From IMG/VR virus record IMGVR_UViG_2531839528_000015: DNA of 32,429 nucleotides; one strand, 5' to 3'. The translations under genes were made by a program, and so were the position numbers. The notes beneath the pieces were generated by a model. The model searched no databases. It worked only from the letters and a program-made list of their open reading frames with translations, and was not told the origin of the DNA. This DNA is from a virus (taxonomy: Duplodnaviria > Heunggongvirae > Uroviricota > Caudoviricetes). Below, piece by piece: positions 1,379-11,893 of the stretch (positions within the stretch are counted from its first letter, which is position 1; each line of letters begins with the position of its first letter).

Positions 1379-2419
1379 TTAATCTTTCCATTTAAAACCA
1401 TTACATAATGTTAAAGGATTAAATGTTACAGCCTCCTCAAGATGATCCGGGGAGAAATGTGCATACTTCATAGTTTCACGAATATTCGCATGACCGAGTA
1501 TACGTTGCAGCACAAGAATATTCCCGCCATTCATCATAAAATGAGCGCCGAAGGTATGACGCAGAACGTGTGTCTTTTGCCCTTCCGTCAGTTCGATATC
1601 CGTTAGTTTGAGCATCTTTTTAAACTCCTGATAGCAAGGCTTAAACATCTTTCCCTGCCTTTCAGATAATTCGTCATACAACCATTTTGGGATCGGAACG
1701 GTTCGATTCTTTTTCCCTTTCGTTTTGGTGAAGGTCAGTTTATGTGGCGAGAGCTGGGGACGTGTCAACCTCTCAGCCTCACCCCATCTAGCACCTGTTG
1801 CAAGACAAATCTTAACAATCATGGTGAGGTCTTCTTTTCCGTATTGCTCGCATGCCTGAAACAATTTCGGAATTTGAGACAAAGTGAGCCAAGACATTTC
1901 TTTCTCGGCTTCCTTGAAAACACGGACTCCATCAAGTGGATTTGGTAAGCTCCACTCCCCTAGCCTTTTGAGCTCATTAAATACAGCCTCAAGATATTGT
2001 TGCTCACGATTGACAGTTATCGGTTTAGCAATCCATTTTGCCGGGTCTTTATGATAGCCATTATCTATCTCCCCCCGAAGTCGGCGGTCACGGTAATGAG
2101 CCCAATCTTTAGCAGTAAGGCGGGATGCAATAGGGTCACCAAGTCCATTACACACGATTTGAAGTTTAGCTAACCGCGACTTACTGGCGACCAGTGCCTG
2201 TCCGTGTAAATTATGCCAAAGCTGGATAATCTCACTTAAGCGTCGGCGGTCTTCTTTCTTGCCGAGCCACGGCTTATCCTCACTCTCACTTTTCGTAAAT
2301 GCTTCGAATGCCTCGGCCTCACCTTTGGTATTGAATTGCCGACGTATACGCCGCCCTTCTCGACCATTTGGATAGAGCTCGCATAACCATTTGCCATTTT
2401 TTTGCTTACTTACAGTCAT
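1379..2419 (-). CDS. int: Tyrosine integrase (P2/186 family)
   Basis: 346-aa ORF with ATG start at 2417-2419. C-terminal tyrosine-recombinase motifs HVLRHTFGAHF and LGHANIRETMKYAHF. Lies at the prophage end, transcribed the same way as the repressor. Confidence 0.9.
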   Translation of the reverse strand: MTVSKQKNGKWLCELYPNGREGRRIRRQFNTKGEAEAFEAFTKSESEDKPWLGKKEDRRRLSEIIQLWHNLHGQALVASKSRLAKLQIVCNGLGDPIASRLTAKDWAHYRDRRLRGEIDNGYHKDPAKWIAKPITVNREQQYLEAVFNELKRLGEWSLPNPLDGVRVFKEAEKEMSWLTLSQIPKLFQACEQYGKEDLTMIVKICLATGARWGEAERLTRPQLSPHKLTFTKTKGKKNRTVPIPKWLYDELSERQGKMFKPCYQEFKKMLKLTDIELTEGQKTHVLRHTFGAHFMMNGGNILVLQRILGHANIRETMKYAHFSPDHLEEAVTFNPLTLCNGFKWKD

Positions 2420-2441
2420 AATGTCACCGAGGCAACTCTAA

Positions 2442-2780
2442 TTATTCCCAAAGTGCTGTTGCAGCATCCATTACAGGATCCAAAGGAATTTTTACGCCTG
2501 CATACTCCGGGCTATCTTTCCAAACAGTATCAATATTGCTCCCCTCAAGCTTTCCAGACTTTACTCCATCAATCGCAAAACCATTTAATGGGTATCGGTC
2601 ATCTGTTGCTTTGTCGTACACAAAGGCATATTTACCGTTGACACAAGACACCGTAGCTTTTTCAAAAGTTAACGGCCAATCCTCACCAAACTTAGCGCCA
2701 TCTAAATCCTGTGTTTTTTCAGCGGCTGAGGCTCCAAAAGAAAGGGTAAGAAGCAGAGCTAAAAAGAGTTTACATTTCAT
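2442..2780 (-). CDS. Small secreted or periplasmic protein (moron), possibly DUF2511/YebY-like
   Basis: The track ORF 2442..2852 overlaps the repressor gene. The internal Met at 2778-2780 begins a typical signal peptide MKCKLFLALLLTLSFGASAA, and a mature domain of about 90 aa follows. The YebY resemblance is from memory only. Confidence 0.55.
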   Translation of the reverse strand: MKCKLFLALLLTLSFGASAAEKTQDLDGAKFGEDWPLTFEKATVSCVNGKYAFVYDKATDDRYPLNGFAIDGVKSGKLEGSNIDTVWKDSPEYAGVKIPLDPVMDAATALWE

Positions 2781-5711: not shown

Positions 5712-7934
5712 TTGGCTGTTCAATTCGCTTATCCGTGGAACGTCCCACGGTCGGCAATCTCCAGCCCATACCTTACTTATGAGCAACAGCATCGCCGCGA
5801 CCGTATGTTCGCGGCTTTGCTGCATGCAAAAAAGGTGCTTTCTCTCCAGCCCGACTGCGTGCGGTTAGATGTTTATCGCACTGCTGCGGTGCTGGAACAA
5901 AATCAGGGTAGTCAACGAGCCAATGCATTTTTAATCAGCTTCTGCAAAAAGGCATTGCCGCGTCTTGAACTGGTCGCAAAAAAATACGAATGCGCTGGTA
6001 TCAACAGCAAGGTATCAACCGCTGTTTTTGGAAGTCATTTTGATACTCAGCAAATGCAATATCTGTCGTCACGCATGGTTAATATGGTCGCCCGATATAA
6101 CCGTCTCCCGGACATGTCGCGCGCTGATGTTGACCTGTTGGCCGCTGATATTGCTAATTTCATTCGTGGTGAACTTGCCAACATTAATGACCACGGATTC
6201 GGCGAGCTTAAAACGCTGTACACCTGGTATATTCGTGCTGGCTTTATTTCCCTCCAATTCAACGTTATCCCACCACATTGGGAGCGGGTTGAAAAAAAAT
6301 ATGTCGGTGCGGATGAAATCGCACCGGCTATCGCCAAAATGTTTAACGATGGGTGGTGGCGCGGTCGTTTGCGCCGTGTAGCAGCTACGTGGCGCGAACA
6401 CCTGCAAATTGCAGTCGGCAACGTCAGTAAGAAAAAAAACACTTACGCGAGTAAAAACTGCGTGACTGACTGGCGTGAACAAAAGCGCCGCACTCGTGAA
6501 TTTCTCAAAGGTCTGGATCTCGAAGACGAAGACGGCAACCGTATCAGCCTAATTGAAAAATATGATGGCTCAGTTGCTAACCCTGCGATTCGCCGCTGTG
6601 AGCTCATGACCCGCATTCGTGGGTTTGAAAACATCTGTAATGAGCTCGGTTATGTCGGTGAGTTTTACACTCTAACCGCGCCGTCAAAATATCACGCCAC
6701 GACTAAAGCCGGTTACCGTAACAGCAAATGGAGCGGTGCCAGCCCGGCTGACACGCAAAACTATCTAACCGGTATCTGGGCGCGTATCCGTGCCAAACTA
6801 CATCGGGAAGATGTCCGTATTTTCGGTATTCGTGTCGCCGAGCCCCATCACGACGGCACTCCACACTGGCACATGCTGATGTTCATGCTGCCGGAAGATG
6901 TTGAATATGTTCGCTCCATCGTCCGTAAATACGCATGGAAAGAAGACCGCCACGAACTGAAAAGCGATAAATCCCAAAAAGCACGTTTCCACGCGGAGTC
7001 CATTGACCCGGAGAAAGGCAGCGCAACCGGCTATGTTGCTAAATACATTTCAAAAAATATCGACGGTTATGCTCTCGATGGTGAAACCGATGATGAAAGC
7101 GGTGAGCTGCTGAAAGAGACAGCCCCCGCCGTTTCAGCATGGGCTGCGCGCTGGCACATCCGTCAGTTTCAGTTTATTGGTGGTGCGCCGGTGACGGTTT
7201 ACCGTGAGTTGCGTCGCCTCGCTGATACCGAAACCGCGCACGGTCTGAGCGTTGAGTTTGCCGCCGTCCATGATGCCGCCGACGCTGGTGACTGGGCTGG
7301 TTATGTTAATGCTCAGGGTGGGCCGTTTGTCCGTCGCGATGATTTACAGGTGCGCACACTGTATGAACCGCGTACCGAGCTTAATCAGTACGGTGAGGAA
7401 ACGGTATGTATTAAGGGGGTCTACGATTCCTCCATAGGTGCAGGAAGCCCGATTTTAACCCGGCTCACTCAGTGGAAGATTGTTCCGAAGCGTGCTGTTG
7501 ATTTGGCCGTTGACCTTCAGGACGGCAAAGCCGTCCCTCGGAGTTCTGTCAATAACTGTACGGGAAGCGAAAGCGATCCACCGATACTGGATTTAACAAA
7601 ACCACTGAGTCGGCGTGAAAGACGAGAATTGACCAACCGACTCAGGAAGCAAAAGCCAGCAGCACGGCGAAAATTCATCCACGGAACGGATGAGCAAAAC
7701 GCAGCTATAGCTAAAACTATCGATGAGATACATCTGACAACCGGCATTAATATCAGCCGGGGCGAAGCCCTGCACCTGATGGCCGGTGGTAAAAGTTGTT
7801 TTGATGGTAAATGGCTACGCGGAACGGCCAAAGGAGAAATATTTTCCGCAGCACCATCGCATGAGGCTAAAGCTCGGAAAATCCTTAATCGTGTTGCGGC
7901 GATGGCTGAAGCATCAAAACCAATACATGAGTAA
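5712..7934 (+). CDS. A: Replication initiation endonuclease (P2 gpA-like, rolling circle)
   Basis: 740 aa. HWHMLMF motif and the tyrosine pair in YVAKYISKNIDGY. TTG start at 5712 with GGGGG at 5701-5705, tightly coupled to the upstream stop. Confidence 0.88.
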   Translation: MAVQFAYPWNVPRSAISSPYLTYEQQHRRDRMFAALLHAKKVLSLQPDCVRLDVYRTAAVLEQNQGSQRANAFLISFCKKALPRLELVAKKYECAGINSKVSTAVFGSHFDTQQMQYLSSRMVNMVARYNRLPDMSRADVDLLAADIANFIRGELANINDHGFGELKTLYTWYIRAGFISLQFNVIPPHWERVEKKYVGADEIAPAIAKMFNDGWWRGRLRRVAATWREHLQIAVGNVSKKKNTYASKNCVTDWREQKRRTREFLKGLDLEDEDGNRISLIEKYDGSVANPAIRRCELMTRIRGFENICNELGYVGEFYTLTAPSKYHATTKAGYRNSKWSGASPADTQNYLTGIWARIRAKLHREDVRIFGIRVAEPHHDGTPHWHMLMFMLPEDVEYVRSIVRKYAWKEDRHELKSDKSQKARFHAESIDPEKGSATGYVAKYISKNIDGYALDGETDDESGELLKETAPAVSAWAARWHIRQFQFIGGAPVTVYRELRRLADTETAHGLSVEFAAVHDAADAGDWAGYVNAQGGPFVRRDDLQVRTLYEPRTELNQYGEETVCIKGVYDSSIGAGSPILTRLTQWKIVPKRAVDLAVDLQDGKAVPRSSVNNCTGSESDPPILDLTKPLSRRERRELTNRLRKQKPAARRKFIHGTDEQNAAIAKTIDEIHLTTGINISRGEALHLMAGGKSCFDGKWLRGTAKGEIFSAAPSHEAKARKILNRVAAMAEASKPIHE

Positions 7935-8008
7935 TTCATATCCATATCATGCACATACAGCAATCGCTCTATTCGTTTTTTTTCTTCCCATCTTTTGCCA
8001 ATACGTGC

Positions 8009-8028
8009 TACTGTATAAATATACAGTA
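8009..8028 (+). promoter_or_regulatory. LexA (SOS) box overlapping a promoter
   Basis: tactgtataaatatacagta is a near-perfect CTGT-N8-ACAG palindrome. A -35-like TTGCCA sits at 7995-8000 and a strong GGGAGG Shine-Dalgarno at 8036-8041. Confidence 0.7.
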
Positions 8029-8047
8029 ACCCTGTGGGAGGGATTTC

Positions 8048-8230
8048 ATGGTTGGCGAACATTTCAGCCGAACGCAGCAAAAGTGGGCTTGTGTGCAATT
8101 TATTGCCGAGGTATCTCTGATTGCAAACTGCAAGCCATCAGACTTAAAGCTCGCGCTCACTCTCATTGCAGACCTAGCAAACAGCGAGAATAACGAAACC
8201 GAAGATGATAATTTTTATAAGGCTGATTAG
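8048..8230 (+). CDS. Small SOS-controlled protein, possibly the N-terminal part of a Tum-like antirepressor
   Basis: 60-aa ORF directly behind the LexA box and GGGAGG. It ends at TAG 8228-8230 and is in the same frame as the DinI-like ORF that starts one codon later. Confidence 0.45.
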   Translation: MVGEHFSRTQQKWACVQFIAEVSLIANCKPSDLKLALTLIADLANSENNETEDDNFYKAD

Positions 8231-8233
8231 ATT

Positions 8234-8467
8234 ATGAGAATCAATATCACGTTGGATAAAGAGCAAAAAATTAGTCAGGCAACATTGGATGCACTTGAGG
8301 CTGAACTGTACCGCAATCTTCAACCTATTTACCCAAAGACTGCTATCCGAATTCGCAAGGGCTCCGCTAATGGCGTTGAACTAAGCGGTTTGAAACTGGA
8401 CGAAGATAAAAAACGAGTAATGGAAATCATGCAGCAGGTATGGGAGGACGATAGCTGGCTGCATTAA
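8234..8467 (+). CDS. DinI-family protein
   Basis: MRINITLDKEQKISQATLDALEAELYRNLQPIYP...EDKKRVMEIMQQVWEDDSW follows the E. coli DinI pattern (MRIEVTI...DALAGEL...EDKQRISEILQETWE). Confidence 0.8.
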   Translation: MRINITLDKEQKISQATLDALEAELYRNLQPIYPKTAIRIRKGSANGVELSGLKLDEDKKRVMEIMQQVWEDDSWLH

Positions 8468-8469
8468 CA

Positions 8470-8534
8470 AACGCCGCCGGTGCTGAAACTTGCTTTCAGT
8501 GCTGGCGGGGTTGAACAACTCGCACCGCGAGGCG
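8470..8534 (+). repeat. 65-bp stem-loop repeat, copy 1
   Basis: aacgccgccggtgctgaaacttgctttcagtgctggcggggttgaacaactcgcaccgcgaggcg. Begins 3 nt after the DinI-like stop. A 15-bp stem forms only as + strand RNA because it uses G-U pairs. Confidence 0.7.
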
Positions 8535-8662
8535 CTAGTTCTTCCTCTCAAAGTTTCTCGATGTTTTATTGGTTACACACCAGTGATGAATGGGACGTTA
8601 CCTTAGCGGGTTTTATAGTGGCGCTGTGGCAGCGCTAAATAAAATTCATTGAGGGCGATAAT

Positions 8663-8872
8663 ATGCATCGACTACCGGGCGAAATTCCGCAGCACAAAAC
8701 TAAAAGCATCAAACTGATGGCCATCGTTCATCGTCTGCAGCAGATAATGGTCAATGAGAATTTGACACCCGCCGAGCTGGTCGGGTGTGCCGAAATAGTC
8801 AGGGATAATTACGGCAAGCTGGATAGCATCAGCAAGCCGACACATTACTCACCGCCACCACGTCGACCATAG
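8663..8872 (+). CDS. Hypothetical small protein (cassette between the two repeats)
   Basis: 69-aa ORF with GAGGG seven nt upstream of the ATG. Confidence 0.45.
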   Translation: MHRLPGEIPQHKTKSIKLMAIVHRLQQIMVNENLTPAELVGCAEIVRDNYGKLDSISKPTHYSPPPRRP

Positions 8873-8874
8873 AT

Positions 8875-8939
8875 AACGCCGCCGGAGCTGAAACTCGCTT
8901 TCAGGTCTGGCGGGGTTGAACAACGAGCTACGCGAGGCG
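8875..8939 (+). repeat. 65-bp stem-loop repeat, copy 2
   Basis: aacgccgccggagctgaaactcgctttcaggtctggcggggttgaacaacgagctacgcgaggcg. Differs from copy 1 at about 8 of 65 positions and begins 3 nt after the stop of the 69-aa ORF. Confidence 0.7.
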
Positions 8940-9005
8940 TTAGCCGGTCATAGCGTCGCAAATACTTCAACCGTCTGCTGGTTAAATAATTCGAGGTTTT
9001 TGGAC

Positions 9006-9200
9006 ATGCAAAATCCCCTTTCATCGAAAAATGACCCGTTTGCCGATTGGGCAAAGAATCTGACTTTAATGGCTTTAAATAACGACCTGAGCTCTCGCGA
9101 GGTGGAAAGCTACACCGCAAAAATGGTCGGGCAGGCCGGTAAAGATGAGCTATCAGTCGTTATCAAACACCTGTTAAATCACATCAGAATGCGCAAATAA
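9006..9200 (+). CDS. Hypothetical small protein
   Basis: Track ORF 8916..9200 starts inside repeat 2. The internal ATG at 9006 with GAGG upstream is more plausible (MQNPLSSKNDPFADWAKNL...). Confidence 0.4.
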   Translation: MQNPLSSKNDPFADWAKNLTLMALNNDLSSREVESYTAKMVGQAGKDELSVVIKHLLNHIRMRK

Positions 9201-9216
9201 GAGGAACTATATAAAT

Positions 9217-9318
9217 ATGTTATCTCTCGTTTATGAAAATCCGTGGACGACGATTTTTCTGATGATTGTTGCCAGCATGTGCCTCAACAGTGTTATTGGC
9301 GCATTGCGCGGCCATTAA
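9217..9318 (+). CDS. Putative 33-aa hydrophobic peptide
   Basis: Translates to MLSLVYENPWTTIFLMIVASMCLNSVIGALRGH, with GAGGA upstream. One predicted transmembrane helix. The terminator follows directly. Too short for the ORF track. Confidence 0.3.
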   Translation: MLSLVYENPWTTIFLMIVASMCLNSVIGALRGH

Positions 9319-9338
9319 TCGCGACAAAACCAGACTAA

Positions 9339-9366
9339 AACCGGCACCCTGAATGCCGGTTTTTTT
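9339..9366 (+). terminator. Rho-independent terminator ending the rightward early/SOS transcription before cos
   Basis: aaccggca-ccctgaa-tgccggtt followed by a six-T run. Confidence 0.7.
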
Positions 9367-9526
9367 ATGCCATTTTTCCGCGAATTTCCCGTTTTTTAGT
9401 CGTGCATGCATCAGGTGCATGGTTTTGCATGCGTCAGTCTTGCCCGTTCTGTCCGTGCGCCGCCAGAGCTAGCGCGGATCCAGAGTTGTCATGCAACTGC
9501 ATTAAAACCGCCCCATAAAGCGGGCA

Positions 9527-9545
9527 GGCGTGGCGGGGAAAGCAT
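9527..9545. other. cos site (19-nt cohesive-end sequence, P2/186 type)
   Basis: ggcgtggcggggaaagcat matches the P2/186 cohesive-end sequence as I remember it (P2: GGCGAGGCGGGGAAAGCAC). It lies in a roughly 400-bp noncoding stretch. Confidence 0.6.
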
Positions 9546-9764
9546 TGCGCGCCAGCAGTGATGCGTAATAATAAAAATTATCCTCTGAGCGCGTCGTGAT
9601 GGCGCTGTCGTGGTCGCTGCTGGTTCGTTGGTGGTCGAGTGTGTTCGTGCGCGTGAGACGCATCTGATGCGTGATGGTGGTGTGCATGGAAAAGCCACCA
9701 GGAGCAGCGGCTTTACAGGAGTGGCAGGATTCAAACTGCTAATTATGTTTCTACTATGATTAAA

Positions 9765-10769
9765 CTAATTTACATGTATGTAGAGTTCACCGTCGCCAGA
9801 CCAATCGGGACACTCTAAAACAAGCCCAAACTGCTTGAATATTTCATCAATGATTATTGTTATCTCCCGAAAATCACCAAAACCTGTAATGTGCTGGTCA
9901 TTAAACTTCCCATAAAGATTCTGAAAAGCAATGCCTAATTCTGATAATTGATATCTTATCTTTGAGTTGGATAGTGTAAGGGATAGCTTTGGATCGTATT
10001 CTTTAATATTGATGTTTAGAGAATGGACATAACCCATCGCATAAGCATAAGAGTTGATGATTAGCCTGATACGTTTTTTTACTTCAAGATACATGTCATT
10101 CAGAGAAATATTACCGTACTTATAACCCCAGATGAGTTTTTCAATCTCGTCAGATACTTCATTTACAACAGTGTCAAGATTCTCTAAAAATAAATCGACA
10201 GTTTCTTGAGGGGCAGACCCCGAAGACATGTAATTAGCGAGATATTCAGACCATGCACGCGTGGCTGAGATAAGAAGCGCGCTACCATACTCGTTGACTG
10301 TAAAGTTTTGGGCTAAGCATGTTAGTAAGTTTTTTTCATGTACGTGCACTAATTCATGGTGAATGCGATGGATGACTGCGAGGTATCCTTCTTCTTTCAG
10401 TTTTAAGAAGCTACCATCATTGAAAAGCTCAACAAAAAAATCAATCGATAGCACAAGGGTATATTCTTCATATAGCCCATCATTGCCAATTTTTGTTACT
10501 AACTGCCCGACGGCTGCGCCCTGTTTGCTATTGGTAAATGAACTAGGGGATTTGTGTTGGTAAGAGGATGTTACCTTTTGAAGAGCTTCACTGAAGTTAT
10601 AGGAAACAATCACGCATTTTAATTTGGAGATATCAAGATTGAGATTCTTTGTTAAAGCTCGGATAGCTTCTAGTGTGAAATTACCGATATTATTTGCTTC
10701 TTGCTCAGTAGCGAAACCTTCGAGGGTTATTTTAAAATCAGTTTCCAAAATATTAATCTCCGCGCCCAT
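9765..10769 (-). CDS. Hypothetical AT-rich 334-aa protein with an HExxH motif, between cos and Q (candidate defence or exclusion cargo)
   Basis: ATG at 10767-10769. Asn/Ile/Leu/Glu-rich translation. HRIHHELVHVHE at residues 134-145 (nt 10344-10358). No Walker A motif and no transmembrane segment seen. Confidence 0.7.
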   Translation of the reverse strand: MGAEINILETDFKITLEGFATEQEANNIGNFTLEAIRALTKNLNLDISKLKCVIVSYNFSEALQKVTSSYQHKSPSSFTNSKQGAAVGQLVTKIGNDGLYEEYTLVLSIDFFVELFNDGSFLKLKEEGYLAVIHRIHHELVHVHEKNLLTCLAQNFTVNEYGSALLISATRAWSEYLANYMSSGSAPQETVDLFLENLDTVVNEVSDEIEKLIWGYKYGNISLNDMYLEVKKRIRLIINSYAYAMGYVHSLNINIKEYDPKLSLTLSNSKIRYQLSELGIAFQNLYGKFNDQHITGFGDFREITIIIDEIFKQFGLVLECPDWSGDGELYIHVN

Positions 10770-10846: not shown

Positions 10847-11893
10847 TTATTCTGGGTTGTCGAGGGTGTACTCTTTGAATCTGATGACCTCCATGCCGAG
10901 CCAGTCATTTACCTCCCTGAACCTGTCCTGTAGCGGCGACAGCTCGTTGCGCACAAATACCTTTGCCACCTTCTCAACATCACCGAGTGAACCGATATTC
11001 TCGGGCTTGCCGCCCATGAGCTGGAACGGTACGCGGTGCGCGTCCATCAGATCGGCGGCACTGGCCTTCTTGATGTTGAAAAAGTCATCCTTTGTGGCGA
11101 CCTCGCTCAGTGGCACGATTTTGATGCCGTCCGGTTTTCCGCCGGGAGCGTAGAAAAACAGGTTCTTAAAGTTGCCGAGCCCTTTTGAGTTGCGCATCGC
11201 CTCGCGCAGCGATTCGACGTCGGTCGCGCTCTGCGCCGGGTCAGTCACATACATGATGTAGCCTGCGTGCGCGCCGTTCTGATAATACTTGCGGCGGAAC
11301 AGCGTCGCGGATTCATTCAGCCAAGCGGAATTAAGCGCGCTGAGATATTCCGGCAGACCGTAAATCTCCTGATTAATGTCGGGCTCCAGCAGGTGAAACA
11401 CGGTATCAGGCGCGAACTCGTGCGGCTGGGTGAAGTTTTCCACAAACCAGAAAATCGAATCGTCGACTCCGCGTCGGGTGTATTTGGCTGGCGAGGCCAG
11501 CAGTTTGATTAACTGGCCGGTGACGCTGTGGCGCTGCTCAAGAAAGGCGTTACCGAACACCAGATAATCGAGCGCAAAGCGGCTGAAATCCTGACGGGAT
11601 AACAACGGGTGCGGAATGTAGGTGCTCGCGAGCACGTTACGCTTAACATAAATTGGCGAGCTGTGATGCACGGCAGAGCGCAGGCTCTTTGCCAGCCCTG
11701 AGAAGCTGACCGGCGGCTCGTACCATTTGCCGTTACTGATGCACTCGACGTAATCCAGAATGTCGCGCTTATCGAGTACCGGCACCGGCTCGCCGAAGGT
11801 GAACGCTGTCGTTTTTGGCGGTGCGCTGGCGGTCAGTTGTTGTGGTTTGCTGGCCTTTTGTGCGTTGGCTTTACGGGATTTTTGTTTACCCAT
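10847..11893 (-). CDS. Q: Portal protein (P2 gpQ-like)
   Basis: 348 aa, the size and position of P2 Q, adjacent to and co-oriented with the large terminase. Confidence 0.9.
   Translation of the reverse strand: MGKQKSRKANAQKASKPQQLTASAPPKTTAFTFGEPVPVLDKRDILDYVECISNGKWYEPPVSFSGLAKSLRSAVHHSSPIYVKRNVLASTYIPHPLLSRQDFSRFALDYLVFGNAFLEQRHSVTGQLIKLLASPAKYTRRGVDDSIFWFVENFTQPHEFAPDTVFHLLEPDINQEIYGLPEYLSALNSAWLNESATLFRRKYYQNGAHAGYIMYVTDPAQSATDVESLREAMRNSKGLGNFKNLFFYAPGGKPDGIKIVPLSEVATKDDFFNIKKASAADLMDAHRVPFQLMGGKPENIGSLGDVEKVAKVFVRNELSPLQDRFREVNDWLGMEVIRFKEYTLDNPE

Follow-up and report, generated by a model that had tools for sequence, protein, structure and literature searches.

In Escherichia coli, TisB (paired with IstR-1) and DinQ (paired with AgrB) are hydrophobic, single-helix peptides of 27-29 amino acids (aa) under LexA. 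They are stand-alone genes, each having its own LexA box, a structured 5′ untranslated region (UTR) that hides the ribosome-binding site (RBS), and an RNA antitoxin. SidA of Caulobacter crescentus is a 29-aa, LexA-controlled, single-helix peptide that inhibits division by binding a membrane protein rather than by harming the membrane. Phage 186 carries an SOS operon for which its record gives the order p95 (the LexA-repressed promoter), tum, t95a (a partial terminator), orf97 and t95b. In this study, we analyzed a stretch of 32,429 nucleotides (nt) from a tailed-phage record (IMG/VR record IMGVR_UViG_2531839528_000015; this whole stretch is referred to as “the window”), which is a 186/P2-like (Peduoviridae) prophage, and within it a small open reading frame (ORF), orf33, whose predicted product is likewise a short hydrophobic single-helix peptide, encoded downstream of a LexA-controlled promoter. 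Based on comparisons among related prophages, orf33 is very probably a real gene for a membrane-spanning peptide of 33 residues in 186/P2-like enteric prophages. The gene call is well supported, its operon context is supported by homology to 186, and a reading of the peptide as a toxin is not supported.

The locus resembles phage 186 in having a near-identical p95/LexA promoter and a homologous t95b at the same distance from cos, with accessory gene(s) in between. The slot held by orf97 in 186, which encodes a 243-aa protein without similarity to orf33, is occupied by orf33 in the window. Both 186 and P2 lack orf33 together with its usual upstream neighbor, orf64, and their homology to the window resumes at a hairpin element or at the terminator; orf33 is therefore an accessory gene. 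Unlike TisB and DinQ, orf33 is a last cistron with an open initiation region and no detectable antisense promoter, and its product is less amphipathic and has no homology to either peptide. SidA, too, has no sequence relation to orf33; it comes from another phylum and is chromosomal rather than phage-borne.

Conservation of the orf33 reading frame

The frame lies at positions 9217-9318 on the plus strand, starting with ATG and running for 33 codons plus TAA (product MLSLVYENPWTTIFLMIVASMCLNSVIGALRGH). A Shine-Dalgarno sequence, GAGGA (9201-9205, plus strand), is located 11 nt ahead of the ATG and abuts the TAA of an upstream 64-aa ORF. The best 19-residue stretch for hydropathy, residues 12-30 with a mean Kyte-Doolittle value of 2.09, fits a single transmembrane helix. 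The 33-aa ORF, the GAGGA site and the single predicted helix, all claimed in an earlier sequence-only reading of this DNA, were thus recovered. The N-terminal tail, MLSLVYENPWTT, is acidic and highly conserved. The helix of about 19 residues carries the invariant polar or small residues S20, C22, N24 and S25, with G28 mostly kept, and the C-terminal end of the peptide is short and basic (R31). The invariant residues surround the C-terminal half of the helix (SxCLNSxI) and run throughout the tail.

Relatives were sought by exact cluster look-up, by degenerate-pattern scans of loci, by tblastn on phages, and by phmmer against 1.84 billion representative proteins, the last of which returned close relatives only, plus one repetitive, eukaryote-like false match. 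The final set consisted of 91 loci (8 annotated phage or E. coli records, 2 species-representative genomes, 50 IMG/VR records, 30 metagenomes and the window itself) from E. coli, Salmonella, Klebsiella, Citrobacter, viromes and metagenomes. Some of the counts below refer to an earlier subset, the first 61 loci. The 91 loci fall into 49 different DNA sequences and 35 different peptides, with identity down to 70%.

A frame of 32-33 codons is intact in 84 of the 91 loci, and its ATG is invariant. The stop codon is lost in four loci and the frame is shifted in three, in two of them by the loss of one T from a T5 homopolymer. The sequence-only reading had pointed to frame disruption in close relatives as evidence that would count against a gene, and frameshifts were seen in just 3 of 91. 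In the stop-loss lineage (L055, L056, L090 and L092), TAA has become GAA, so that the frame crosses the terminator and extends to at least 50 codons; the peptide of this lineage also has Q15, T17 and L31, which suggests either decay or a changed function. Another locus of the same lineage, L057, is one codon short (32 aa).

The substitutions bear the pattern expected of a translated sequence. As the sequences are related and recombining, the p-values are indicative rather than exact, and the tree counts and the randomization that follow are not independent samples. Variable columns at codon positions 1, 2 and 3 number 17, 13 and 27 in the 91 loci (16, 11 and 26 in the first 61, chi-square p = 0.0008), and the changes inferred on a neighbor-joining tree are distributed as 60, 32 and 90. 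On this tree, 86 synonymous and 78 non-synonymous changes were counted in the orf33 frame, compared with 44 and 117 or 21 and 141 in the two shifted frames. For the 61 loci, the pairwise ratio of non-synonymous to synonymous divergence (pN/pS) was 0.34, lower than in any of the other five frames; on all data it was 0.37 (bootstrap 95% confidence interval 0.18-0.66). For the first 12 codons, pS was 0.197 and pN was 0.038, meaning that MLSLVYENPWTT is conserved at the protein level, beyond the conservation of the DNA; the earlier call to compare peptide with DNA conservation thus came out in favor of the peptide, both here and over the whole frame.

Disruption of the frame is also avoided. When the positions of the observed differences were randomized with the same base retained, 15.6 ± 2.8 of 40 unique sequences were broken (start lost, stop gained or stop lost), compared with 2 observed, and none of 2000 simulations (0/2000) yielded as few. 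Gap columns number 2 of 102 within the ORF, whereas the upstream spacer has 8 of 16 and the post-stop spacer 5 of 20. Similarly, the inferred changes per site were 1.84 for orf33, 3.40 for orf64, 5.39 for the post-stop spacer and 3.1 for the DNA past the terminator. All of these coding signals agree in direction.

Further, independent support comes from the surroundings of the gene. An AAGGA or GAGGA sequence is present at the same place ahead of the ATG in most loci, including L036 and L037, whose upstream DNA is unrelated. In L036, homology to the window starts exactly at the ATG, and the differing upstream sequences of L036 and L037 each supply GAGGA at the correct distance. The upstream gene orf64 is absent or decayed in 12 of 61 loci and evolves approximately twice as fast as orf33. 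It has been cleanly deleted from SEN1, L032 and L033, in which orf33 is still present. In eight loci (L014, L035, L041-43, L050, L052 and L053) it has degenerated and sits behind a divergent 334-aa gene (MSKENxP...), again with orf33 intact. The initiation region is AT-rich, and its folding energy is no lower than that of shuffled sequences in nearly all variants.

Could the DNA or RNA be what is conserved, with the frame being incidental? The segment might serve as a 3′ UTR, as a small RNA derived from the 3′ end and terminating at the t95b homologue, or as part of an extended cos region. The 310-bp block from the ATG to cos is indeed conserved and nearly free of indels (306-310 nt in length in nearly all loci), the synonymous divergence of the first 12 codons (0.197) is somewhat below that of the helix (0.293), and there are weak, non-significant Rfam matches to terminator-containing RNAs. 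However, a 3 > 1 > 2 periodicity, a pN/pS below 1, and the avoidance of stops and indels are not expected of a DNA or RNA element. In addition, P2 and 186 package their DNA without this segment, their homology beginning only at the terminator, and, as read from the alignment, the V5I and T11/T12 codon variants break the predicted hairpins within the ORF with no compensation. One such internal hairpin, at 9227-9250, was considered on its own and dismissed, as it is neither conserved nor accompanied by compensatory changes. No Rfam family reached its threshold; the sub-threshold matches come from the terminator (for example, Thr_leader with 22.8 of 55 bits). A role as a leader peptide or attenuator was rejected because no plus-strand gene follows the terminator. 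We therefore regard the absence of a gene as quite improbable.

A gene on the opposite strand can be set aside even more firmly. An antisense ORF at 9220-9420 (minus strand), which spans the terminator, is open in the window (66 aa; 89-90 aa elsewhere) and has been annotated in several records: by the NCBI pipeline PGAP (for example, WP_073507529.1) and in phage Midge (CPTMidge_047), with the corresponding positions in relatives being 1772-2041 (minus) in L001 and 2182-2454 (minus) in L002. Against its being the real gene, stops or indels break the frame in E. coli PKF8, SI22, SEN1 and the Klebsiella phage, pN/pS is 0.59 in the antisense frame versus 0.34 in the sense frame, its translation would cross the terminator hairpin with its A/T runs, and the promoter scan gave no promoter-like site for it. 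The antisense ORF, which shows no coding signature, is probably spurious, i.e., a mis-annotation, and the notion that it, and not orf33, is the true gene is scarcely credible.

The SOS operon and the cos-proximal region

A region at 7985-8030 (plus strand) aligns almost base for base with p95 of phage 186 and its LexA site, and a pattern search located a perfect LexA box, CTGTATAAATATACAG, at 8011-8026 (plus strand), 1.2 kb upstream of orf33. The position downstream of a LexA-controlled module, as first proposed, therefore holds in the window, with a promoter nearly identical to p95. At the other end, an intrinsic terminator at 9337-9366 begins 18 nt past the orf33 stop; its stem is formed by AAAACCGGCA (9337-9346) and TGCCGGTTTT (9354-9363), the loop between them is 7 nt long, and seven consecutive T occupy 9360-9366. 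The stem ACCGGCA/TGCCGGT and a run of T6-8 are kept in essentially all loci. The pattern scan lists this terminator on the minus strand only because its A-tract pairs with the T-run; the scan of relatives gives it a plus-strand score, and it is thus bidirectional. The terminator and the next 60 nt or so align with t95b of 186 and its downstream DNA, and both terminators lie about 160 nt short of the cohesive end. This match in homology and position assigns the terminator to the whole SOS operon and not to the peptide alone. Thus, the terminator predicted behind the ORF is genuine, but the description of it as orf33's own does not stand, since it is shared.

The sequence GGCGTGGCGGGGAAAGCAT at 9527-9545 (plus strand), a 19-mer that we take to be the P2/186 cos cohesive end, lies 310 nt from the orf33 ATG, and in nearly every locus this distance falls within 306-310 nt. 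In the alignment with 186, the linear record of that phage has its right end at base 9526 of the window.

By analogy with 186, orf33 would be the last cistron of a LexA-repressed, p95-type operon consisting of a tum-like ORF, dinI, orf69, orf64 and orf33, with a message ending at the t95b homologue about 160 nt before cos. Synthesis of the peptide would then follow the loss of LexA upon DNA damage, provided that transcription passes two internal hairpins. A continuous transcript from p95 to orf33 is likewise extrapolated from 186, and the share of SOS transcription that reaches orf33 is inferred. The pattern scan gave no plus-strand terminator-like site between the promoter region and orf33, and a scan for sigma-70-like promoters on either strand of 7800-9900 gave none, although this was a consensus scan that weak promoters could escape.

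The regulation of orf33 may differ among relatives. The tum/dinI module is found within the available upstream DNA in 37 of 61 loci and not in the other 24. In the same eight loci in which orf64 has decayed, the CAGAAT of the window reads TATAAT, a consensus −10 box, 29-34 nt upstream of the ATG, with TTGTTA 19 nt upstream of it. This suggests a promoter belonging to orf33 itself, which may free the gene from the SOS operon in these loci.

The other members of the putative operon are recognizable. The first ORF past the promoter (60 aa, 8048-8230, plus strand; phrog_1993) occupies the slot of the N-terminal part of 186 tum; it is called tum-like by this position and by the note ‘UV induction of bacteriophage’ on its SEN1 homologue. 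It is followed by a 77-aa DinI-family ORF (8234-8467, plus strand; Pfam PF06183, E = 7e-24; PHROG 189), which is also annotated as DinI family in relatives. In the window, tum and dinI are two ORFs, and in 186 they are one. The prophage BTP5 of Salmonella D23580 has tum and orf97, as in 186. The orf69 cassette (8663-8872, plus strand; phrog_11386) is present or absent among near-identical prophages, while orf64 (9006-9200, plus strand; phrog_2454) is the usual upstream neighbor of orf33, its stop abutting the orf33 RBS. In many relatives, the start of orf64 overlaps by 2 nt that of a divergent 143-aa gene, which the Midge record describes as a ‘putative transcriptional regulator’.

The hairpins are two copies of a repeat of about 70 nt, at 8470-8535 directly past the dinI stop and at 8875-8940 directly past the orf69 stop (both plus strand). 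The repeat core, GCCGCCGG(T/A)GCTGAAAC...TTTCAG..CTGGCGG, forms a 15-bp hairpin with G-U pairs in plus-strand RNA only, with folding energies of −36 and −31 kcal/mol (z = −5.0 and −3.5, compared with about −1.5 for the minus strand). It carries no U-run and is distinct from the annotated t95a. The same repeat is found past orf97 in phage 186 (L061, 1745-1815), and the majority of the 55 matched phage records match this hairpin element alone. The element may mark the edge of a cassette or serve as a site at which RNA is processed or stabilized. The prophage of TW10598 (L004), despite 100% identity over 8900-9420, lacks orf69 and has a single hairpin copy, and its tum-to-orf33 distance is 405 bp shorter. 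This difference exactly equals the distance between the two copies of the repeat in the window, and recombination between the direct repeats therefore seems to account for the gain or loss of the orf69 cassette.

On a larger scale, the region 8900-9420 is 100% identical to prophages of E. coli TW10598, JKHS016 and other strains, and a search of 5426 complete E. coli genomes gave a match to it in 65. Its identity is 90-92% to Salmonella phages SW9, SI22 and FSL SP-004 and Escherichia phage Midge, and 76% to Klebsiella phage ST147-VIM1phi7.1. Replication gene A stops at 7934 and the minus-strand portal gene Q occupies 10847-11893, which places orf33 inside the cos-proximal gpA-gpQ region. This region of P2-like phages is a known hotspot of accessory and anti-phage genes (PMC9122126), and orf33 has the location expected of its cargo, between gene A and portal Q and adjoining cos. 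A PADLOC search revealed no similarity of orf33 to known or candidate defense proteins. In Klebsiella phage ST147-VIM1phi7.1, a gene for an RNA-directed DNA polymerase (a retron-type reverse transcriptase; 39-989 of L003) is located upstream of orf64 and orf33, and its presence in the same hotspot fits the defense-cargo nature of the region. The window also carries a 334-aa ORF (9765-10769, minus strand) across the hotspot from orf33, between the portal gene and cos; it has no significant Pfam or PADLOC match and is annotated as two separate coding sequences (CDSs) in TW10598 and as a single CDS in PKF8.

Membrane toxin, division inhibitor or partner-binding peptide

The size and hydrophobicity of the peptide had led to a comparison with SOS-linked membrane toxins. 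According to this explanation, orf33 would be an analogue of TisB or DinQ, or a small holin-like (viroporin-like) oligomer lined by S20, N24 and G28, such that DNA damage leads to production of the peptide, collapse of the proton-motive force, and arrest or death of the induced cell. In its favor, the peptide is small and hydrophobic and its gene follows a perfect LexA box, the invariant polar residues within the helix could line an oligomeric pore, and a last cistron behind two hairpins could be held at low basal expression. However, most of the features of such toxins are missing. The peptide showed no toxin-family similarity in Pfam, NCBIfam, PHROGs or PADLOC, or among the 1.84 billion representative proteins. 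There is no promoter-like site for an antisense RNA in the region scanned, and the bidirectional terminator would block antisense transcription arriving from the right. The RBS is not sequestered: a hairpin pairing the Shine-Dalgarno sequence with CUCUC (−4.5 kcal/mol) was rejected as a conserved element, as it occurs in the window type only, is absent from most variants and shows no compensatory changes. The net charge of the peptide is 0 and its helical hydrophobic moment is 0.55, compared with 1.30 for TisB. Furthermore, the 24 loci lacking the tum/dinI module in their available upstream DNA, and the eight loci with TATAAT 29 nt ahead of the ATG, do not fit. Expression in these eight loci is suggested not to depend on the SOS response, a state that cells could hardly bear if the product were an unguarded toxin. 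The evidence thus speaks against membership of the type I toxin-antitoxin families (TisB/IstR, DinQ/AgrB, Hok/Sok, Ldr, Ibs, Sho and Zor). The likeness to TisB and DinQ failed on homology, antisense promoter, RBS sequestration and linkage to the SOS module (37 of 61 loci), and we consider an SOS-induced toxin or depolarizer unlikely.

A different possibility is an SOS-induced small membrane inhibitor of division, analogous to SidA or of the prophage Kil/DicB type, that would bind a divisome protein at induction. In the window, its size, single helix and LexA-controlled context are those of SidA, and residues conserved all round the helix as well as along the juxtamembrane tail are consistent with a specific protein partner. 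There is, however, no sequence similarity, the linkage to LexA is inconsistent among loci, and SulA already fills this role in E. coli. This explanation seems improbable.

We favor, with moderate confidence, the view that 186/P2-like prophages carry in orf33 a genuine accessory gene that is translated, a cistron of the p95-type operon that encodes a single-pass inner-membrane peptide, most likely acting on a specific partner. By the positive-inside rule, its N-terminus would be periplasmic and its C-terminus cytoplasmic. The helix would engage in specific helix-helix binding with a host or phage membrane protein; invariant residues around the helix and along the tail make specific packing on a protein partner likelier than non-specific damage to the membrane, and a detergent-like or pore-forming toxin is accordingly the less likely mode. 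Short single-pass peptides that bind a larger membrane protein include AcrZ, MgtS, HK97 gp15 and T4 Imm, none of which shows homology to orf33. The role might be lysogenic conversion, superinfection exclusion or modulation of the host, as is typical of gpA-gpQ cargo. Phage “moron” membrane proteins are patchily distributed accessory genes that often block superinfection, and the hotspot location, patchy distribution and variable regulation of orf33 add to the guess of host modulation or exclusion.

Several observations weigh against this view, besides the relatedness of the sequences mentioned above. The Shine-Dalgarno sequence is reduced to ATGGA or AATGA in some lineages, three loci are frameshifted, and one lineage of four loci has no stop codon, as if decaying. 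Most SOS transcripts from p95 might be halted short of orf33 by the two strong hairpins, which have no U-run. Many relatives have the opposite-strand 143-aa gene between dinI and orf64, so that read-through from p95 is not the sole possible source of message. Finally, the proposed mode of action is deduced from just the composition and the conservation pattern of the helix.

The sole database signal obtained with the peptide was to DUF883_C (Pfam PF19029). Of 27 variants, 11 matched it, with a score of 11.7 bits (E = 0.1-0.2) that falls below the gathering threshold of 27, and the match spans residues 4-13 only. Like orf33, the DUF883 proteins YqjD, ElaB and YgaM carry V-x-E-N-P-W-T directly ahead of the helix and have an Arg close to the C-terminus. 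The translated C-terminus of E. coli YqjD reads ...YVRENPWTGVGIGAAIGVVLGVLLSRR, and around the motif VYENPWT (orf33) and VRENPWT (YqjD) are identical at 6 of 9 positions. However, the orf33 helix, TTIFLMIVASMCLNSVIGAL, has one Gly, compared with GVGIGAAIGVVLGVL in YqjD, and orf33 has neither the cytoplasmic DUF883 domain nor the glycine zipper that defines DUF883_C. Lacking this zipper, orf33 is not a member of DUF883_C, and the shared ENPW juxtamembrane motif is a lead rather than a result. A lipoprotein or Rz1-type o-spanin was also considered and dismissed. Although C22 is invariant, position −1 is M, C, V, A or Y, which does not match the lipobox [LVI][ASTVI][GAS]C, and the N-terminus has E7 and no K or R, and hence no basic n-region as in a lipoprotein signal peptide.

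It is also conceivable, though we think it distinctly doubtful, that orf33 founds a new class of prophage-borne, LexA-linked membrane effectors that operate without an RNA antitoxin. Such an effector might depolarize the membrane or block division, or it might mimic the ENPW anchor, in which case orf33 would displace or recruit the ribosome-tethering DUF883 proteins YqjD, ElaB and YgaM at induction.

Annotation of orf33 and its significance

The earlier description of orf33 as unannotated is correct for RefSeq/PGAP records of E. coli and for most phage records, from which it is missing, but not for all databases. It appears as a ‘hypothetical protein’ (QBQ71544.1) in Klebsiella phage ST147-VIM1phi7.1 and lies within an N-terminally extended 55-aa CDS in phage SEN1. 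Many GenBank/UniProt entries from E. coli, Salmonella and Klebsiella contain it, three variants each being found on about 1000 contigs, and none of these entries carries a functional name. Literature searches covering the peptide sequence, the SOS operon of 186 and the hotspots of P2 did not turn up this ORF.

Genes as short as this one are routinely missed. RefSeq omits orf33 and, in some genomes, annotates the spurious antisense ORF in its place. The gene represents an uncharacterized family of small membrane peptides of phages whose host range is narrow. Should it have no phenotype, the outcome would be a corrected annotation and a worked example of how small ORFs can be validated by comparison. 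If, on the other hand, a phenotype exists, be it phage exclusion, a membrane function or control of induction, orf33 would provide a compact and easily tested small membrane protein of phage origin.

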